DNA of 35,499 nucleotides from a virus (IMGVR_UViG_2718217860_000003); one strand, 5' to 3'. Positions 4,751-34,215 are shown, counted from the stretch's first letter. Notes: generated by a model from the sequence alone, not told the origin. Numbers and translations: made by a program.

Positions 4751-4808
4751 AAAAAGGGCGGCAGAGCAGTCACGGAGTAAAACTGATACCGCCAAACGTC
4801 ACCAGAAA
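4751..4808 (-). ncRNA. dicF: DicF small RNA (ftsZ-targeting antisense sRNA) with its intrinsic terminator
   Basis: The minus strand reads UUUCUGGUGACGUUUGGCGGUAUCAGUUUUACUCCGUGACUGCUCUGCCGCCCUUUUU, a GGCGG...CCGCC hairpin followed by a U-run, lying between ydfC and dicB as in the Qin dicB operon. Ends are approximate. Confidence 0.85.
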
Positions 4809-8078: not shown

Positions 8079-8501
8079 GTGGCAAAAGTTTTTACACAAG
8101 AAGAGCGGGAAAAAATTAAAGGGCAGGTGGTGGAACTCGTGCGCCAGAGCGGTCGTGAGACGTTACGGCAACTGGAAGTCAAGACAGGTGCGACAAGATA
8201 TCTGATGAGCGTTCTCGCAAGAGAGCTGGTTGCCAGCGGCGATGTATACAACTCTGGTTACGGGTTATTCCCGTCTGAACAGGCGCGTAAGGACTGGCAA
8301 AATGCCCGTAAAAAGCTCTCAAGGGCAAAGCTGAAGGAACCATCTGCGGTTGATCCGGACCTTATCTGGTCATTACCTGACGGAGAAATACGTCGCTACG
8401 ACAGGCGTCAGAACATAATCTGTCGCGAGTGCCGGAAGAGTGAAGTTATGCAGCGCATACTAGCATTCTATCAGGGAAATGCTCGATATTTATTGAAGTG
8501 A
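8079..8501 (+). CDS. Hypothetical protein (replication-module associated), GTG start
   Basis: 140-aa ORF with RBS-like TAAGGGGGA upstream of GTG; basic, Cys-containing C-terminus. No family recognised. Confidence 0.55.
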   Translation: MAKVFTQEEREKIKGQVVELVRQSGRETLRQLEVKTGATRYLMSVLARELVASGDVYNSGYGLFPSEQARKDWQNARKKLSRAKLKEPSAVDPDLIWSLPDGEIRRYDRRQNIICRECRKSEVMQRILAFYQGNARYLLK

Positions 8502-8753
8502 TGAGATTAAAGTTTATTAGTTCAGATATTGATTGGCTCTTTTGTGGAGTAGGGTAGAGTTAGTGTGTTTGTCTGCTTGGTGCCAGCAGCGGATATGTTT
8601 AACAACAGAAAGCATTCAGCATGGTTAGTGGATTTGCAAAGTGGATTAGGATTTGAGAAACTTTGATGAAGTTGTAAAGCTTGTTTCTATAAAAATAGAA
8701 ATTTAACTAATAGTTAAACACACCTCCAGCTTCATTGAAAAGGATTATTAGCT

Positions 8754-9653
8754 ATGATTGATCCACTTATTAGAAACTTACAGAGTGATATTGCACTACT
8801 CCAGCTTTATATCGCGCAACGCAAACAGGCAGGCTTTCATGACATGGAAAGAATAATTGAGTCATTGACCATCTTTATGTTTCGCGCGCTGAAAATGGGT
8901 GAACTGGTAAACATGAATCAGATTAAAGTTAATTTTCCCGCCATTGATTTAGCTGATAATAAAAACATGATAGCAGTTCAAGTTACTACGAATGCAAGTC
9001 CAGCAAAAATTAAAAAAACTATCGAATCTTTTGAGGAAGCAAATGAAATAGGAGAGAGTCTGAAAGATAAATACTCTACTTTATATATTTTTGGTTTTTG
9101 TAAAGCCTCAAGATACCTAACTCCAAGTTATTGTAAAATAATCGACCCCAGCTATTTCGTGAATGAACTTTGCGATAAAGCAGATGAAGATATGGTCCAG
9201 GATATGATTGACGCCATTCGACGCCATCATGATTATACATCATTACATCCATGGAGTGATAAAGATTCACTCGAAATTATACTCAATATTATTAATCGCA
9301 ATGCAATAAAACATCGGATGAGTTGCGAAGGCAGTCTGTCTGATATGCTCACTGGTTTAAAAGAAATTAATGAAGTAATTACAAAAGGAACAATTCAACG
9401 TAAGCAACGTTCAAAATCGATATCTGACTTCAAAGATCAAAGCATGGTGAAATTTATGAGAGGTGTAATGGATGATTTGTCTGTTATTCAAGCCATAGTG
9501 AACAAATCTAAAGTTAACCAAGGTGATATGGTTTATATAAGCCATGAAGATATGATTAATATTGATAAATTAAAAGCTAAAATAGCAAGTGATTCATCAG
9601 AGATTGCAAGGCTAAATAATATTGATATAACACTAAATGTTGTTGATTTATAA
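8754..9653 (+). CDS. Hypothetical protein encoded in an AT-rich accessory island (candidate defence/abortive-infection-type protein)
   Basis: 299-aa ORF in a visibly AT-rich block; no confident family match. Convergent with the membrane protein/methyltransferase operon. Confidence 0.7.
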   Translation: MIDPLIRNLQSDIALLQLYIAQRKQAGFHDMERIIESLTIFMFRALKMGELVNMNQIKVNFPAIDLADNKNMIAVQVTTNASPAKIKKTIESFEEANEIGESLKDKYSTLYIFGFCKASRYLTPSYCKIIDPSYFVNELCDKADEDMVQDMIDAIRRHHDYTSLHPWSDKDSLEIILNIINRNAIKHRMSCEGSLSDMLTGLKEINEVITKGTIQRKQRSKSISDFKDQSMVKFMRGVMDDLSVIQAIVNKSKVNQGDMVYISHEDMINIDKLKAKIASDSSEIARLNNIDITLNVVDL

Positions 9654-9967
9654 TTGTCGATTTAGCAAAACAGAGAATGCTTTGAAAGTTTCACCGAGAA
9701 ATATTTATTGTGAACCTCCTTATTGTTTATCGACTTTTACTCTCCGCTCATTGCAGTACTGTCGGAGAAGGCTACTATGTACAAGAAGCAGCTAACATAA
9801 GCGAGCATCACTATTGATATTAGGAAGAGTATATAAAAACTTCATGCTGAACCTTACAAAAGTAGGTAAACCGGCAATGGCCTAAGTGGCAGGGTCATGT
9901 TGATCCGGCACTGCCGAGCTAATAATTAACAAGCAAATCACTCTTTCTAATAATTTGTTGAAATAAA

Positions 9968-10627
9968 CTAAATATGTATATGTTTACCAACAACCACATA
10001 TGAACTACCTGCTTTGCTCCATGATTTTATTATTTCTAAATTATTATCTGAGCATATTTTACTTACAGTATCCACATCTAATAAACCATAGTAGAAAGCA
10101 TTACGAGAGTTTTGGTATATATACCCATGCAAATGTTTAATACCGCTCTCGTACCTCTTGAAATAAGAACTTTTGTATTGATTGACAATCAGTGCTTCAC
10201 CATCACTCTTTAATAATTCTCTAATCGCACTGAGGACTTTGTGAATTGTGGATTCACATGGAATTGCGGAAAGCACGTTTGCGCAAAGTATGAAATCATA
10301 ATGATTTGTTATTTTATCTATATTTTCATAAGAAACAATATTAGCATTCTTATAGTTATTTATCACGTAATCTGGAATCGTGGTTTGTACACCTCTGATA
10401 ATTTGCACTCTTTCTAGTTGTCTTCTGGAATCTAAAAATGTCACAGTTTCAAATTTATTTACTAATTGTTCTGAATATCTAAGTTTTCCACATCCAAAAT
10501 CAAGGGCATTGCCATTTTTATTAGTGCTTTCAATCTGTTTACAGAGATAGTTAGATGGCATAGTGTGCGGTTTCGCTGCATTTTCTGAACGTATGTTTAT
10601 TCCATTTATTTTGTAATTCAAAATCAA
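9968..10627 (-). CDS. Class I SAM-dependent methyltransferase (not a recognisable DNA methyltransferase)
   Basis: 219-aa ORF with SAM-binding motif I (ALDFGCGKLRYSEQL), an acidic post-I residue (VTFLDSRRQ) and a motif II-like segment (DFILCANVLSAIP). No DPPY/NPPY or PCQ motifs. Confidence 0.75.
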   Translation of the reverse strand: MILNYKINGINIRSENAAKPHTMPSNYLCKQIESTNKNGNALDFGCGKLRYSEQLVNKFETVTFLDSRRQLERVQIIRGVQTTIPDYVINNYKNANIVSYENIDKITNHYDFILCANVLSAIPCESTIHKVLSAIRELLKSDGEALIVNQYKSSYFKRYESGIKHLHGYIYQNSRNAFYYGLLDVDTVSKICSDNNLEIIKSWSKAGSSYVVVGKHIHI

Positions 10628-10633
10628 CCTCGT

Positions 10634-11341
10634 TTAAAAAATATTGTTATTGTTAAAGAATTCTTTTATTTTGCTATCAGGTATTTGTCTTACTTGGCTT
10701 TCTGTTCTTGGTTTAACTGATGCTATGAAAATAAGGAAGTCAAATGCGACAAGAGAAATAATCCACAACCAAAGATTAATTAAAGAGCCAGTAACAGAGA
10801 ATATATTTGTTAATTTGGCGATACTTATTATTAAAATAGTAACAAATGCGATTACTGTATGTTCAAAGAAAACCCAAAAGTAATAAACTTTGTTCCAGAA
10901 AAGTTCAACGTAATGTTTGTCTTTTAACTCTTTAACTTCTGGGTAATACAGTTTACTCATTACCTTGTGAGATTCATCAGTAGTTAATTTTCTCGTAACG
11001 CCTGCAATTTTTGCTAATGGTTTAATAATTAAATGACTATCCCACATCTTCCTTATTCCAATAATTTTTGCTACATTATTATGTAGATCTAAAGCTCCAC
11101 TAATTACTGACCAAAAAACTGAAGATGCAATTGGTAATATGCCAAAGGTTAATATCCATTTAATAAATTCCTCGTAGTCTTTAACGGGGGGGATATACTT
11201 GGCATTAATGCCAACCAATGGCATGTAGCCATAAATGACTAATGATAGGTAAAATATAAATGTAGTAATAAAAGTCGCCTTATGGAGCATAGGCAACATT
11301 TCATTATAACTCTTTGGTGGTTCTAACATTTTACTCTCCAA
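10634..11341 (-). CDS. Integral membrane protein (about 4 predicted TM helices), function unknown; forms an operon with the downstream methyltransferase
   Basis: 235-aa ORF with several long hydrophobic stretches; its stop lies 6 bp from the methyltransferase start on the same strand. Confidence 0.7.
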   Translation of the reverse strand: MESKMLEPPKSYNEMLPMLHKATFITTFIFYLSLVIYGYMPLVGINAKYIPPVKDYEEFIKWILTFGILPIASSVFWSVISGALDLHNNVAKIIGIRKMWDSHLIIKPLAKIAGVTRKLTTDESHKVMSKLYYPEVKELKDKHYVELFWNKVYYFWVFFEHTVIAFVTILIISIAKLTNIFSVTGSLINLWLWIISLVAFDFLIFIASVKPRTESQVRQIPDSKIKEFFNNNNIF

Positions 11342-12014
11342 ACATTCAAAAAAAAGCTAATCTTCTATAATAACGAAATTCAGCTGGCACAATTAAAGAT
11401 TAATTGCCACCAATTTCTTGATTTTATAATTTTATCTAAATGTTTTTGATTAATCTAGTCCTAAAAGAAACCTACTGCATAAATATTTATGCTGATGACC
11501 CACTCCCTGTTCGTTAACACATAGCAACGTTAGTAATGCATCCTAAGTGATCAATATTTTTGCTAGCTTCATCTGCTCGCTCAAAGGGAACTATAATGTT
11601 GGCTTGCGTGTGACTTGGCATGTTTAAAGAAGTGCTGGTGGTGACTGGTTGCTGTTTTCCATTTCCACAGAACAAAATCATAGAAACTATACCCAGTAGT
11701 TGTATTGAATCACTGACGAGACAGCCTCATATTTATCAGGACTGGTGTACGTCCAATACAGGAGGTTGTGGTGCTGGTTCTCAAATGTGCGCTGGCTATT
11801 GCTGCTGTAATGGCAATTTATTGTCTTGCTGTTGTTCTTATGGATCACCTTTCTGATTGATTTCATATTGGCGAGGTAACGGTAGTTAAGTAGAATTGCT
11901 GCGGGTGCTTGAGGCTATCTGCCTCGGGCATCAACACCAAAGGCAGATAGAGAAAAGCCCCAGTTAACATTACGCGTCCGGCAAGACGCTTAACATTAAT
12001 CTGAGGCCATATCT

Positions 12015-12227
12015 ATGCTCTACACACGTAGGTTAGCCTCTTACGTGCCGAAAGGCAAGGAGAAGCAGGCTATGAAGCAGCAAAAGGCGATGCTAATCGC
12101 CCTGATCGTCATCTGTTTAACCGTCATAGTGACGGCACTGGTAACGAGGAAAGACCTCTGCGAGGTACGAATCCGAACCGGTCAGACGGAGGTCGCTGTC
12201 TTCACAGCTTACGAACCTGAGGAGTAA
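12015..12227 (+). CDS. Mok-like leader ORF in frame with hokD (N-terminally extended reading frame)
   Basis: The track ORF starts 19 codons upstream of the Hok Met in the same frame. Confidence 0.35.
   Translation: MLYTRRLASYVPKGKEKQAMKQQKAMLIALIVICLTVIVTALVTRKDLCEVRIRTGQTEVAVFTAYEPEE
12072..12227 (+). CDS. hokD: Hok/Gef-family type I toxin (HokD/RelF-like)
   Basis: 51-aa product MKQQKAMLIALIVICLTVIVTALVTRKDLCEVRIRTGQTEVAVFTAYEPEE with AAGGAG RBS; single TM helix and conserved Hok C-terminus. Confidence 0.9.
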   Translation: MKQQKAMLIALIVICLTVIVTALVTRKDLCEVRIRTGQTEVAVFTAYEPEE

Positions 12228-15439: not shown

Positions 15440-15515
15440 GGTCCTTTAGCTCAGTGGTGAGAGCGAGCGACTCATAATCGCCAGGTCGCTGGTTCAAATC
15501 CAGCAAGGGCCACCA
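15440..15515 (+). tRNA. tRNA with CAU anticodon (ileX/ileZ-type tRNA-Ile2 if lysidine-modified; reads as Met by anticodon alone)
   Basis: Cloverleaf: acceptor GGTCCTT/AAGGGCC, D-arm GCTCAGTGGTGAGAGC, anticodon loop CTCATAA, T-arm GGTTCAAATCC, 3' ACCA. One A-C mismatch at the base of the anticodon stem. Confidence 0.8.
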
Positions 15516-15621: not shown

Positions 15622-15698
15622 GCGTTGTTAGCTCAGCCGGACAGAGCAATTGCCTTCTAAGCAATCGGTCACTGGTTCGAATCCAGTACAGCGCGCCA
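15622..15698 (+). tRNA. tRNA-Arg (UCU anticodon)
   Basis: Acceptor GCGTTGT/ACAGCGC, D-arm AGCTCAGCCGGACAGAGC, anticodon loop CTTCTAA, T-arm GGTTCGAATCC, 3' GCCA. Confidence 0.8.
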
Positions 15699-16162: not shown

Positions 16163-16695
16163 ATACATATCTGGATTATCACCTGTTACGGTAAAAAGTG
16201 ATTGCTTACTGTTTTTGTGAATGGCATTGCAGCAGCCGGATAATGTCAGTGCTGGCTGACGGTGTGCTGGTGGCGGGTGTGGTGGTTGTTGCTTTCCCGT
16301 TGCTGAAAAAGAAAACGCCAGACTGTTAGCCGGGTATCAGTTAGCGGGAGAAATTTTTAAATACTTCACAATTCAGGCGGTTGACTGTTCTCTGGTTTGC
16401 GGGGAGTTTGTTAAAAGAAACTGGCATGGTGAATCCCCCTGTGCGGAGGGGCAATCAGCGAGTAGGCATATGGGATAATCGCGGATTCAGGTGCTGGTAC
16501 TGAATTCACCGGGAGGCACCCGGCACCATGCACTTCAATAGATTCTCTCCACATTATGGATATTCTTTCAGAATATCCCACGCAGACTTTGTGTAAATGT
16601 TAACAAATGTGCGTTTTATTTGATCTGATTCGCTGTTTGAGCGTCCAAAACAACGGTATATATAATCCTTTACTATATGACATATGTGAGGAAAA

Positions 16696-19905: not shown

Positions 19906-20073
19906 GGTTGCAGGAAATTTAAAATCTGGCGATGAAATTTAATATTAGAAATTCATTGCCTAGTGAGATTAATAATGGGCATCCCTTTGTGACGATAAGC
20001 TTTAACACATTCACAAAGGGATATTTAATATAGGGTGGTTAATTCCCACTTGCTGTGGTGTTTAGGGGGTAAT

Positions 20074-20766
20074 TCAAATCTTATCTAACTCATTATAGGC
20101 TTCGATAATAAAAATTCTGATTTTAATAAGGCATGATTCAATGAAAGGAATTACTTCATGGTCATTCCCATGGAATCTTATTTTTTTCTCTTCGGTAATG
20201 ACTATGTTTAAAGGTACACCATTACCACTTCTTTGTAATTTCCCATTTTCGAAAGTAAAGTCTTCTAATTTTTTGCCATTGATGTGGTTGTTTTTAAAGA
20301 GAATTTTTGCTGAGCTTCCTGCTGTGATTAAACCAAAACCATCTACGCTCACACTTAGGTCTTTAACAGAACTCTCTTCTCTTAAGGGGATTGGTTGTCT
20401 GTGCTTTACTTCATTAGTGAGATTACACATCATTTCCAACCAAGATTCGCCAGTGTGATAATCCTGTATAGAAGTAAAAATTTTATATAATGGAGAAGAT
20501 GATGGTGGGTTTATTTTTAGCGTCTTTGAGAAAAATTTATCAATAAACTCTTTTTTTCCGTAAGGGAAATATATTTTGGGGCGCTCATCATTACTGCGTG
20601 GAGAAATATATTTATCATAGGTATCATTAGCGAGATACTCTAAGGAACTTCGTAAGTTTTCCAAAATAGCTTTGACTTTTACAGGCTTGATATGCTGTGT
20701 CTGTCTCATTATGCCAAGACTTTCTTCAACTTCTTGCAATAAGTCCAACGAGCCTTCTCTAGACAT
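20074..20766 (-). CDS. Hypothetical protein in an AT-rich moron between the lysis cassette and terminase
   Basis: 230-aa ORF in a visibly AT-rich segment, opposite strand to the flanking late genes; no family recognised. Confidence 0.65.
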   Translation of the reverse strand: MSREGSLDLLQEVEESLGIMRQTQHIKPVKVKAILENLRSSLEYLANDTYDKYISPRSNDERPKIYFPYGKKEFIDKFFSKTLKINPPSSSPLYKIFTSIQDYHTGESWLEMMCNLTNEVKHRQPIPLREESSVKDLSVSVDGFGLITAGSSAKILFKNNHINGKKLEDFTFENGKLQRSGNGVPLNIVITEEKKIRFHGNDHEVIPFIESCLIKIRIFIIEAYNELDKI

Positions 20767-21337
20767 ACAGGTAATTCTCCTTTATGAATTTTCAACATGT
20801 TATAACTAATAATATATTTATCATATAACTGTATGAATAAATTGTGAGATTAGTAATGCAAGTTTCTATCCATAGTGTTCTCTAAGTACCCGCTTCCATC
20901 ATGTTGTTACGGACGGTATGGCTAAAACAAAGCACCTGAAGTTAAACGTTCTGAACTTTATGCTCGTTGAGCATATGAATTATCTGTAACCCGATGCGCT
21001 GGTTGTGGTTCACATTGATGGTCGTAATCAGCAGCGGTGGTGCCTGATGGCATGCAACTTCTTACTTATAAAACTTCGTATGGAATTGTTGCCATAACGA
21101 GCCCAGCTTAGCAGTTTTTAATGGGTCCTCCCGGCAGTGTGTCCTGCCACGGGGCGGGAGCGTCGCGGAAAAAGGCTAGTTTTTGAAATTTCATTCGTCA
21201 TCACCACTACTTTAATATATTGATATTACAGTGGTTTTATTTTTATGGTGTCGATTTTGATTGTTTTTTGTTCATCACTAACACCGTTTGCCTAAAGTTG
21301 TTCGCAAGATGCATGTTTAAAACATTCTGGAGCGGGT

Positions 21338-31300: not shown

Positions 31301-31900
31301 TACCCGAAACTTGCAGCCGCTTATCCGTCAGGCGTGATCCCTGATATGCGTGGCTGGACGATTAAGGGCAAGCCCGCCAGTGGTCGTGCCGTATTGTCTC
31401 AGGAACAGGACGGCATAAAATCGCATACCCACAGCGCCAGCGCATCCAGTACTGATTTGGGGACGAAAACCACATCGTCGTTTGATTACGGCACTAAATC
31501 CACGAATAACACTGGTGCGCATACCCATAGTTTAAGTGGCAGCACGAATGCAGCTGGTAATCACAGCCATAGAGATGGCCGTCGATTTAACCCCAGTGTT
31601 TTTAAAGATACTTATCAATATGGTTATACAAGCTCAGGTCAAAATACCTGGGGTGTACAAGGCTCAGTAGGTATGTCTACGGGGGCGTTAGCTAATACCA
31701 GTACAGATGGTAACCATAGCCACTCACTGTCCGGCACAGCAGCATCTGCAGGTGCACACGCACATACTGTCGGTATTGGTGCACACACGCACTCCGTTGC
31801 GATTGGTTCACATGGACACACCATCACCGTTAACGCTGCTGGTAACGCGGAAAACACCGTCAAAAACATCGCATTTAACTATATTGTGAGGCTTGCATAA
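28370..31900 (+). CDS. stf: Side tail fibre protein Stf
   Basis: Begins [26 protein letters not shown]... (the track ORF starts 2 codons earlier at GTG); long Ala/Ser-rich low-complexity shaft, tandem repeat units, His-rich HxH C-terminal tip. Confidence 0.9.
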
Positions 31901-32481
31901 TGGCATTCAGAATGAGTGAACAACCACGGACCATAAAAATTTATAATCTGCTGGCCGGAACTAATGAATTTATTGGTGAAGGTGACGCATATATTCCGCC
32001 TCATACAGGTCTGCCAGCAAACAGTACCGATATTGCACCGCCAGATATTCCTGCTGGCTTTGTGGCTGTTTTCAACAGTGATGAGGCATCGTGGCATCTC
32101 GTTGAAGATCATCGGGGAAAAACCGTCTATGACGTGGCTTCCGGCGACGCGTTATTTATTTCTGAACTTGGCTCGTTACCGGAAAATGTCACCTGGTTAT
32201 CGCCGGAAGGGGAATATCAGAAGTGGAACGGCACAGCCTGGGTGAAGGATACGGAAGCAGAAAAACTGTTCCGGATCCGGGAGGCGGAAGAAACAAAAAA
32301 CAACCTGATGCAGGTAGCCAGTGAGCATATTGCGCCGCTTCAGGATGCTGCAGATCTGGAAATTGCAACGGAGGAAGAAATCTCGTTGCTGGAAGCCTGG
32401 AAGAAGTATCGGGTGTTGCTGAACCGTGTTAATACAACAACTGCACCGGATATTGAATGGCCAGTAGCACCTATAGGGTAA
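31900..32481 (+). CDS. tfa: Tail fibre assembly protein Tfa
   Basis: 193-aa ORF; start overlaps the stf stop (TAATG); conserved Tfa C-terminus ...[31 protein letters not shown]. Confidence 0.9.
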
Positions 32482-33070
32482 ATTCGTAATGATTACCTAA
32501 ATACGTTATTCTTTTGTTCAAAAAGTGATTTTTCTATAGGTAGGGAGTATGTTCTTGGATTAAGAATAAAAAATCGCCATGAAAGAGCTTCATGGCGAGT
32601 ACATAAACGTACAAAATATGATGAAAGTAGAGTGGCGTAAGCCACTATATTAAGATATGACAATAGCGAAGAAAAGTAAATAACATTTTATGGGCGTTTA
32701 ATTGTTAATTATAAAAACTAGAGTGCCCGATATTGTTTATCTTGCTTTAAAATAATGTACTCAAACCAAATTTTTGAGCTAAAAGCTCAAATAATATAAA
32801 TGCAATGATAATGTTTAATAAGACAATTAGCTTGCTTTGTATTTTCATTTCGGAATACTGTTAAGTAACTTTGATGACACTAACAATAGATCGGAATTTT
32901 CTTAGAGTCAATGGTCACTGTTTTTGCTTGCAAAGCAAATCTTTTTGGTGGTTATAAGTTTTCTTAATATAGTCACCTATGCAACTTGTTCCGTGTGGAG
33001 ATTAAAGGTTAAAATTTAATGCGAAGATGGAATTATAATATATTTTTTTATAATTAATTTAACCTTAACA

Positions 33071-33169
33071 TCGTTGCTGGCGGCATGGAAGAAATATCGG
33101 GTCTTGCTGATGTCGTGTTGGCACTTCCTTAGTGCGGTTATCGAATGGCCAGCTGTACCTGTGGGGTAA
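33071..33169 (+). pseudogene. Relic 3' fragment of a second tfa gene
   Basis: DNA homologous to the last 33 codons of tfa ([13 protein letters not shown]...IEWPAVPVG*), with no upstream reading frame. Confidence 0.7.
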
Positions 33170-33301
33170 AAACTTTATATGGGTGCTATTTTTATAATAG
33201 CTGGTAAAAACTGGCCGAACTGAAATTCACTGTTGATAAAAAAGATGTGTTTGAGTGTATGTCATTGTTTTCTTAATGGAATCCACTAGAATGCAGCGAA
33301 T

Positions 33302-33499
33302 TTAAGAAGGTGGGTTTTTATTGGAATATAAACTACAATAATGCTCAACTCGTTCGTAGAATTGTTTTTTCTTATTTTTTGGAATGCTAACCATTATATG
33401 CATTATGGGGGCGATACTTCCTGATAATTTACATGATGCATACATTGAAGCAATAAATTCAATATCATTGTCATCAAAGTTAAAGCTTTCTCCGTCCAT
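33302..33499 (-). CDS. Hypothetical small protein (uncertain)
   Basis: 65-aa ORF with AAGGA about 7 nt upstream of the ATG, in an AT-rich gene-poor segment. Confidence 0.3.
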   Translation of the reverse strand: MDGESFNFDDNDIEFIASMYASCKLSGSIAPIMHIMVSIPKNKKKQFYERVEHYCSLYSNKNPPS

Positions 33500-34215
33500 T
33501 TCAATTCCTTATGTGTTTGGCACAACTGATGCTGTATCCCATGAGAATTTATGCAAGTTGTTATGTTTGATTTGATATTGCAATGATAATTGTAGCTAAT
33601 TGTTTTCAATTGAGTGAAAGTTTATTTCGAGTGATTAAGTCGAAAAAAAAGATTTCTCACGGTTAGTAAGCGTATTAGGTTAGTATTCAGATATGAATGG
33701 TATTAATGACTAAATTTTCAATCATATATGGATTTTTATGCTGATGAAGATGTTTTATTTGGCGATTCGTCAAGCATCTTCACTTAAGTAATCGTATATT
33801 TTAAGAGTGCAAAAGAGAAAGGGACAACGTTGCTCGCACTCTGGATTAAATATAGGGTGTTGTTAAACTGCGTTGATACATAATTGTACCGGATATTGAG
33901 TGGTCTGAAGTCCCAGTCATTAAGTAATCGTTTCGTGATATGCCGCAGAAACGTTGTATGCAATAACGTTCTGCGGTTGGCTGATGCACTTTCGAGAGTG
34001 TATTGAATAATTTCAAGCCGTTATTGTTTTTACGCGTAACACCATGAAAAGATTGCTTATCTGTTGGGGTGTTTTTTGGGGCATATATGGGACAGAAATA
34101 GGCCACAGATAGATAGTAAGATCGAACTCAGGATGTTTTTGAAAAAATGTAACTATCTGAAAAAACCTAGAAAGCGCCAAGGAAACCACAGAATGAGAAA
34201 AAACATCTGTGAATT

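Follow-up and report, generated by a model that had tools for sequence, protein, structure and literature searches.

The SMEK domain is an Mrr-like effector nuclease that is fused to the APAZ domain in short prokaryotic Argonaute (pAgo) systems and is also one of the N-terminal effectors of the short Lamassu protein LmuA (PMC10810196; 10.1101/2023.06.08.544223; PMC12663957). In the e14 prophage of Escherichia coli K-12, the genes ymfE and ymfD adjoin lit, which encodes the abortive-infection protease Lit. The literature on ymfE and ymfD assigns no function to them (PMC12096079; PMC6590174; PMC11002266): the ymfD knockout resembles three other methyltransferase knockouts in a survey of m6A (PMC12096079), and for ymfE one paper records no more than a "potential SOS box" (PMC6590174), while a later study saw no SOS induction of the gene (PMC11002266). 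Here we describe an AT-rich cassette in the viral DNA stretch IMGVR_UViG_2718217860_000003 (35,499 nucleotides; the whole stretch analyzed is hereafter referred to as the window), in which a gene for a stand-alone SMEK protein (module 1) is joined to a pair of genes homologous to ymfE and ymfD, which encode an inner-membrane protein and an S-adenosylmethionine (SAM)-dependent methyltransferase (module 2). The best overall explanation, to which we give a probability of roughly 0.55, is that this is a foreign cassette of a prophage hotspot and consists of a SMEK defense-type module and a membrane protein/methyltransferase module. No mention of the RefSeq accessions of the three proteins was found in the literature.

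The GC content is 0.31-0.36 over positions 8501-11500 versus 0.45-0.52 on either side, and amounts to 0.324 for the cassette and 0.341 for the interval 8502-12014 compared with a window mean of 0.471. In the sliding-window profile, the cassette is the lowest-GC 2.9 kb of the window, 0.15% of the 2.9-kb sliding windows being equally low and the minimum lying at 8651, and the GC content at third codon positions (GC3) is 0.25-0.28 in the three cassette genes versus 0.50-0.55 in the adjacent O-like, DUF977 and DUF968 genes. An earlier note made from the sequence alone, the original prediction, had claimed an AT-rich block at 8502-12014; its low GC content is borne out and so is the AT-rich part of its extent, whereas the last ~450 bp (about 11573-12014) are conserved flank and the start of hok/sok. 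The three genes that it had claimed are present in both the list of open reading frames (ORFs) and the RefSeq annotation, with products of 299, 217 and 231 amino acids (aa) and with the 299-aa gene convergent with the membrane protein and methyltransferase operon, as described (Table 1). Pfam, NCBIfam and PHROGs assign no routine phage function to them, in agreement with the proposed lack of a phage-structural or replication role, and the whole island occurs in just 146 of 5426 complete E. coli genomes and hence is accessory; parts of its flanks occur in 4787 of them. The genes are neither core genes nor genes of routine phage function, the two outcomes that had been named beforehand as speaking against the prediction.

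The window represents a lambdoid prophage of the Qin type, located at rspB, and matches the K-12 Qin prophage in both site and type. A genome search found prophages identical to the window adjoining rspB in E. coli ARL09/232 and many other strains, and the gene order is int, xis, exo, dicB, DicF, ydfABC, repressor/cro, YdaT, O-like and DUF977 on the left of the island and hokD, rem, DUF968, RusA, Q, tRNAs, lysis and terminase on its right. K-12 Qin shares with the window the prophage type, the rspB attachment site and the slot between the replication region and hokD-rem-ydfU, but it carries different cargo there, namely flxA, ydfV, relB and relE instead of the SMEK and ymfED-like cassette; relB-relE directly adjoin hokD, in agreement with the original prediction. 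The flanks of the slot are kept in the phages Tritos, HannyBb, vB_EcoS-640R1 and PhiR42_1, with protein identities of 89-96% for DUF977 and 96-100% for mok/hokD, and likewise in K-12 Qin (89-100% in all five flank comparisons). Nucleotide homology to the four phages stops at 8480-8604 and is back at 11573-11883, specifically at 11573 for Tritos, 11728 for HannyBb and 11883 for 640R1 and PhiR42_1. Between these points Tritos carries a gene for a 444-aa protein with an FRG domain and a match at 1e-98 to PDC-S15, a defense candidate of PADLOC (L002, 2840-4174, minus strand), HannyBb carries a gene that matches QueH at 1.9e-65 and is annotated in its record as hypothetical only (L003, 2865-3551), and the other slot contents among the related phages are small ORFs. 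Because the flanks are conserved while the content between them differs in each relative, K-12 Qin included, the DUF977-hokD interval is a true variable cargo hotspot, as had been claimed, and this slot of Qin-type prophages is a usable discovery site, given its relBE, FRG/PDC-S15, QueH and SMEK/ymfED-like contents.

The cassette is horizontally acquired foreign cargo between DUF977, a gene of the replication module, and hok/sok. It is collinear at 83-87% nucleotide identity in other prophages (L020, L048, L051, L053 and L058), which have different replication genes, and a conjugative plasmid of Citrobacter koseri (IncHI2A) has the same three-gene arrangement next to genes for AbiTii and a DUF4145 protein. 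Cassette mobility is not explained by terminal repeats: a search for direct or inverted ones gave only chance AT-rich matches, and no repeats frame the cassette. The region upstream of the ymfE-like operon aligns across L066, L048, L050, L020, L053, L026 and L052 and fails to align with e14 or P2-type copies. At the cassette edge, 148-163 bp upstream of the ymfE-like start codon, lies a perfect 16-bp palindrome (GCATAAATATTTATGC, 11477-11492), which was discarded as a candidate operator since none of the other cassette lineages conserves it. Scans for sigma-70 consensus promoters and for terminators gave counts at or below shuffled expectation, and the convergent spacer between the two modules contains no terminator-like site.

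The product of module 1 comprises a SMEK/Mrr-like PD-(D/E)xK-type nuclease domain (residues 1 to ~135) and a family-specific helical (four-helix) domain (residues ~140-299). Over residues ~5-120 it matches SMEK_N at 80.3 bits in Pfam (PF21941, cut-off 27) and 106.1 bits in NCBIfam (NF033859, cut-off 30), and all 39 of 39 family members match the SMEK_N profile. The profile of 39 homologues matches one solved structure, PDB 26bh_D ("Mrr domain from Kordia jejudonensis Mrr-APAZ pAgo", E = 8e-13), with which the family has the motifs NFPAIDLAD, Q-x-T/S and a following K in common, and E36, D65, Q76, T78 and K85 are invariant in the family. The domain is intact and is predicted to be a nuclease. 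In PADLOC-DB 2.0.0 (hereafter PADLOC 2.0), with which all comparisons with known defense systems were made, the model Aga_REase-PNTD1-PNTD2 matches module 1 at 1e-20 over residues 8-146, which correspond to model positions 9-143 of 463 only. The C-terminal half has invariant residues of its own, including R182-N-A-I-K-H187, E192 and G193; R182 does not vary among the 39 homologues, at least 90% of which keep H187, and RNAIKH fits the HEPN motif R-x4-6-H. Because profile and fold searches give no support, the SMEK protein is not filed here as a HEPN protein, and we treat that assignment as a low-probability idea only. In the 31 metagenome loci recovered by the C-terminal domain alone, this domain is always fused to SMEK_N, and none of them has it swapped onto another effector, in a scan that is pattern-limited.

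Module 1 is a self-contained single-gene unit. Its neighbors were counted in 38 loci that lack the methyltransferase pair and represent 24 lineages below 90% identity, and the search for a conserved partner gene ended with no neighbor family in more than two of these lineages. The neighbors vary and are of a defense-island or mobile-element type, including a CBASS-like SMODS and S_4TM pair, AbiGi with an N6/N4 methyltransferase on an integrative and conjugative element, HipA-like, FRG and Mrr genes, SLATT_5, TacA/acetyltransferase with SymE, and integrases. The ratio of nonsynonymous to synonymous substitution rates (dN/dS) of the SMEK gene is 0.11-0.29.

Two of the SMEK neighborhoods deserve separate mention. 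On a metagenome contig (L023, 7050-8981), an 82%-identical SMEK gene is directly followed by genes for a CBASS-like SMODS cyclase (a weak match) and an S_4TM effector and then by ArdC and IS66. In Pseudomonas (L010, 6958-9736), a 68%-identical SMEK gene is followed by an unannotated 219-aa gene on the same strand, a gene for a SLATT_5 membrane protein and a 309-aa gene; this gene set recurs in contigs L011 and L012 and may be a separate conflict system. The 219-aa product was also compared with YmfE as a possible diverged relative and proved unrelated.

The membrane protein and methyltransferase genes of module 2 are an obligate two-gene operon with translational coupling. In every locus examined they are adjacent with the membrane protein gene first, down to identities of 21-37% for the membrane protein and 43-45% for the methyltransferase, and they are separated by gaps of 1-13 bp or overlap. 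The membrane protein has four transmembrane (TM) helices, a basic helical loop of ~65 residues between TM2 and TM3 and a basic C-terminal tail. In the methyltransferase, the motifs NAAKP, LDFGCGKLRYS, F-DS and NVLSAIPC are conserved in 30 homologues, with LDFGCGK (the SAM motif) and F-DS invariant. One homologue is named ymfD, and a direct search then matched the pair to ymfE-ymfD of K-12 e14 at 68.9% nucleotide identity over 98% of the pair, with protein identities of 60% for the membrane protein and 68% for the methyltransferase. Besides e14, the pair is found in P2-like prophages right after ogr (Providencia, Enterobacter asburiae), in a lambdoid prophage right after O/P and in 28 IMG/VR prophage contigs. 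Remote pairs, whose methyltransferases are 43-45% identical, occur in variable islands of Marinobacter (hhalign E = 8e-54 for a 37%-identical membrane protein) and Microbulbifer (97% probability). A profile search of 1.84 billion representatives yielded 215 YmfE-like proteins of 220-250 aa, none of which is in a Pfam family. The membrane protein gene is the most constrained of the three cassette genes, with a dN/dS of 0.09-0.12, and that of the methyltransferase gene is 0.11-0.33.

Two loci of the pair are of note in their own right. In E. coli FXCREC004 (NZ_CP196743.1, 2489391-2491836), a ymfE/ymfD-like pair is interrupted by the IS30-family element ISApl1, and the pair is therefore dispensable at least in this strain. 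In Microbulbifer (L062, 1986-7669), three unannotated genes on the same strand (224, 575 and 565 aa; no Pfam family) precede the remote YmfE/YmfD-like pair, and after it come genes for a transposase, a SUFU-like protein and a Tse2-type ADP-ribosyltransferase toxin; the locus might represent a toxin island or an operon of larger size.

The methyltransferase is matched by Methyltransf_12 at 35 bits (cut-off 30) and Methyltransf_23 at 34.2 bits (cut-off 27) of Pfam. No DNA-methyltransferase family is among its Pfam and NCBIfam matches at E <= 1, neither (D/N)PP(Y/F) nor C5 motifs are found in the alignment, and a search of PDB relatives for its substrate returned weak, generic matches only. The tehAB operon also pairs a membrane protein with a SAM methyltransferase, and module 2 might likewise serve lysogenic conversion or physiology by methylating a small molecule, lipid or quinone, for example in detoxification, with the SMEK gene as an unrelated neighbor. 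Such a role is suggested by a Pfam TehB match of 24.4 bits (cut-off 20.4), by weak TehB matches in NCBIfam, by the name of UbiG-like benzoquinol methylases that some sources give to homologues and by the location of the remote Marinobacter and Microbulbifer pairs outside prophages. However, the NCBIfam TehB equivalog scores are 28 and 29 versus cut-offs of 218 and 303, respectively, the generic Methyltransf_12/23 families outscore TehB, the membrane partner resembles neither TehA nor any Pfam family, and in every context examined the pair lies in a mobile element or in a variable island that contains transposases and toxin-antitoxin (TA) genes, with the e14 copy beside Lit. We therefore consider a TehAB-like role rather unlikely.

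Alternatively, the membrane protein could be a toxin that is continuously neutralized by the methyltransferase, similar to a type VII enzymatic antitoxin, so that the prophage would be stabilized or abortive infection would follow when SAM or expression collapses. We know of no methyltransferase antitoxin. The tight coupling of the two genes (gaps of 1-13 bp or overlap), the strongest constraint being on the membrane protein (dN/dS of 0.09-0.12) and the TA cargo that the hotspot carries elsewhere (relBE, hok/sok) are all in line with such an arrangement, and ymfE tolerates few transposon insertions in K-12 (PMC5821084). The low transposon density would be more ordinarily explained by the occlusion of AT-rich DNA by H-NS, and K-12 survives the knockout of ymfD and grows normally (PMC12096079), both of which make a toxin and antitoxin very improbable here.

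We conclude that the island is a composite: its two modules originated separately, came together a single time in Enterobacteriaceae and have traveled as one block since. In the tree, the SMEK proteins of the three-gene loci (trios) are monophyletic with all SMEK-only homologues outside, and the pair-only loci nest next to the pairs of the trios. This single clade of trio SMEK proteins, together with the collinearity of the cassette, points to a single joining; most simply, a SMEK gene was captured once beside an older prophage-borne pair, and the 2.9-kb block then spread with occasional loss. The pair-only cassettes L026, L052 and L054 start to align at 9885-9893, within the convergent spacer, and the alignment of L048 breaks between 9813 and 9882.

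The three genes could instead be one unit, in either of two forms. In the first, which resembles restriction-modification, the membrane protein would anchor or regulate a methyltransferase that marks self, and the SMEK nuclease would attack unmarked (or, if of the Mrr type, marked) DNA; in the second, the membrane protein and the methyltransferase would sense infection and switch the nuclease on. A convergent layout of nuclease and methyltransferase genes is common in restriction-modification systems, and the convergent collinear arrangement recurs in at least four diverged lineages (SMEK identities of 100, 90, 88 and 83%) and in elements as different as the Qin-type slot, other lambdoid prophages and the IncHI2A plasmid. 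The counts in complete E. coli genomes also match (146+5+1 genomes for SMEK and 146+5 for the non-e14 pair), and the monophyly of the trio SMEK proteins likewise favors one unit. Nevertheless, with all three genes under purifying selection (dN/dS of 0.09-0.33), each part persists alone under such selection, SMEK in 24 lineages without a conserved neighbor and the pair in e14, P2-like prophages, other lambdoids, Marinobacter and Microbulbifer. The pair-only loci are nested next to the trio pairs in the tree, and the start of the pair-only cassette falls within the convergent spacer (9885). The SMEK gene and the pair are separate convergent transcription units, and the methyltransferase has neither a DNA-methyltransferase family match nor the (D/N)PP(Y/F) or C5 motifs. 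On balance, a single three-gene system is quite unlikely.

In PADLOC 2.0, no full-length system match was found for the cassette proteins: the SMEK protein is matched in its N-terminal domain only, the methyltransferase has a weak generic match to mad2 (9.7e-5), and nothing was found for the membrane protein or 17 of its relatives. Because no system there includes any of the three proteins, the undescribed system of the original prediction is indeed undescribed within PADLOC 2.0, but it is two modules rather than one system, and its pair is homologous to ymfE-ymfD of K-12.

Based on the composite of two modules that we favor, we propose that the helical C-terminal domain of module 1 may hold the SMEK nuclease off until an infection cue or oligomerization, after which the released nuclease would cut DNA and lead to abortive infection or direct restriction. 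This gating is proposed by analogy with SMEK/Mrr-APAZ and LmuA, whose systems employ this effector domain for DNA destruction when triggered, the likeness being one of domain role and not of family membership. In module 2, the four-TM protein, with its basic helical domain in the cytoplasm, may dock the cytoplasmic methyltransferase at the inner membrane via recruitment, or may itself be controlled by the methyltransferase, and the membrane-anchored pair could act in phage exclusion or conflict; our confidence in a membrane-anchored complex is low. The context of module 2 is of a defense type, its homologues being found beside Lit in e14 and at moron positions of lambdoid and P2-like prophages. 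Once joined, the modules would move together as a mini defense island. That the ymfE/ymfD-type pair is a new anti-phage or exclusion system by itself, in which the methyltransferase works with or on its four-TM partner, and that it may also cooperate with SMEK as a three-gene system, is unlikely but worth bearing in mind; such a system would have gone unnoticed in K-12, where the pair is part of e14.

Several points weigh against the defense-cassette interpretation. Defense is argued from context alone, because no PADLOC 2.0 system matches. The membrane protein has no recognizable relative in Pfam or PDB, and no relative of the C-terminal half of module 1 was recognized in Pfam, PADLOC or PDB. 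The Pfam, NCBIfam and PDB matches of the methyltransferase are only generic and point to no substrate, and the K-12 ymfD knockout grows normally without a specific phenotype (PMC12096079). Furthermore, SMEK and the non-e14 pair co-occur in 151 of 152 E. coli genomes and the trio is also kept on a plasmid, so the two modules may be functionally linked after all. We regard the cassette as a sound candidate for experiment; uncharacterized cargo genes are common in prophage hotspots, and other architectures with the SMEK effector have been described before. Should module 1 prove active, the SMEK/Mrr effector of Argonaute and Lamassu systems would also work as a single gene with its own sensor domain, adding a compact defense gene with a distribution across Proteobacteria. 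Activity of module 2 would provide a function for the long-standing K-12 genes ymfE and ymfD and a membrane-anchored, methyltransferase-based mechanism that is absent from current defense catalogues.

Table 1. Coordinates of the cassette, its genes and its flanks in the window
Feature	Position	Strand	Basis
AT-rich three-gene cargo cassette (SMEK, ymfD-like and ymfE-like genes), mobile unit	8582..11495		Collinearity and GC content
Module 1, 299-aa stand-alone SMEK protein	8754..9653	+	ORF list, RefSeq annotation, profiles
Convergent intergenic spacer between modules 1 and 2	9654..9967		Module junction at ~9813-9885
Module 2b, 217-aa class I SAM-dependent methyltransferase, homologue of e14 YmfD	9968..10621	-	Pfam, comparison with K-12
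Module 2a, 231-aa inner-membrane protein, homologue of e14 YmfE	10634..11329	-	ORF list, comparison with K-12
Upstream (promoter/leader) region of the ymfE-like operon, within the cassette	11330..11495	-	Conserved among trio and pair-only lineages
DUF977 ("LygF"/"Ren-like") gene, conserved left flank	8079..8501	+	RefSeq annotation of a 100%-identical record
Conserved right flank upstream of hok/sok, outside the island	11573..11902		Phage homology resumes; GC content back to 0.43
sok/mok/hokD type I TA locus, right anchor	11903..12227	+	Rfam and RefSeq annotation

Within the right anchor, the sok RNA is found at 11903-12077 (Rfam RF01794, 114 bits) and the hokD coding sequence at 12072-12227 according to the RefSeq annotation of an identical record. 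The conserved right flank upstream of sok/hokD contains an unannotated and very cysteine-rich 78-aa ORF at 11620-11856 on the plus strand (…CAGYCCCNGNLLSCCCSYGSPF); other phage records have small ORFs on the opposite strand in this region, one of them named "hornerin", and the region may be non-coding leader DNA of hok/sok.

Elsewhere in the window, the lysis genes and DUF1441/terminase are separated by a second block of low GC content (0.34 over 20000-21000) that contains a 230-aa ORF at 20074-20766 (minus strand); this ORF is without a match in Pfam and PADLOC, corresponds to the RefSeq hypothetical protein WP_176607959 and looks like the content of another moron slot. A third AT-rich stretch at 32450-34100 (GC content of 0.33), which contains no ORF of at least 90 aa, is probably the prophage end or attachment region; on its left are a tail-fibre-assembly-like ORF (31900-32481) and a match to the small RNA IS009 of Rfam (32243-32441, 225 bits), and on its right is an MFS-type transporter gene that runs from 34216 to the end of the window. 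Rfam also identified DicF at 4756-4807 (minus strand, 76.7 bits) and, downstream of the Q antiterminator gene, the small RNA STnc100 at 16395-16585 (plus strand, 113.7 bits) and two tRNAs, for Ile and Arg according to the RefSeq record, at 15440-15512 and 15622-15695 on the plus strand.

Among the described systems, short pAgo systems are related to module 1 through its N-terminal ~135 residues, which are homologous to the Mrr domain of Kordia jejudonensis Mrr-APAZ/pAgo (26bh) and have the core motifs in common with it. Module 1, however, has no APAZ domain, its C-terminal half being an unrelated four-helix domain limited to its own family, and no PIWI/Argonaute gene is found next to SMEK in the window, where the neighbors are the DUF977 and methyltransferase genes, or in any neighborhood examined. 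With LmuA of short Lamassu systems (PMC12663957), module 1 shares the design principle of an N-terminal SMEK effector with a C-terminal part that confers regulation; neither an LmuB/SMC-like nor an LmuC partner lies beside SMEK in the window or in the 24 other lineages, and none of the 39 SMEK family members matches LmuA in PADLOC. Type II/IV restriction systems have an Mrr-type nuclease, or a nuclease together with a methyltransferase, but the methyltransferase of module 2 stands outside the DNA-methyltransferase families and its linkage to SMEK is not obligate. TehA/TehB are similar to module 2 in pairing a membrane protein with a class I SAM methyltransferase and in a weak TehB match in Pfam, but the module 2 methyltransferase scores far below the NCBIfam TehB equivalog cut-offs and its membrane partner is unrelated to TehA. 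The genes ymfE-ymfD of e14 are homologues of module 2 with identical order and coupling, from which module 2 differs as a diverged lineage in another prophage and another slot, where it is joined to SMEK rather than located beside lit.

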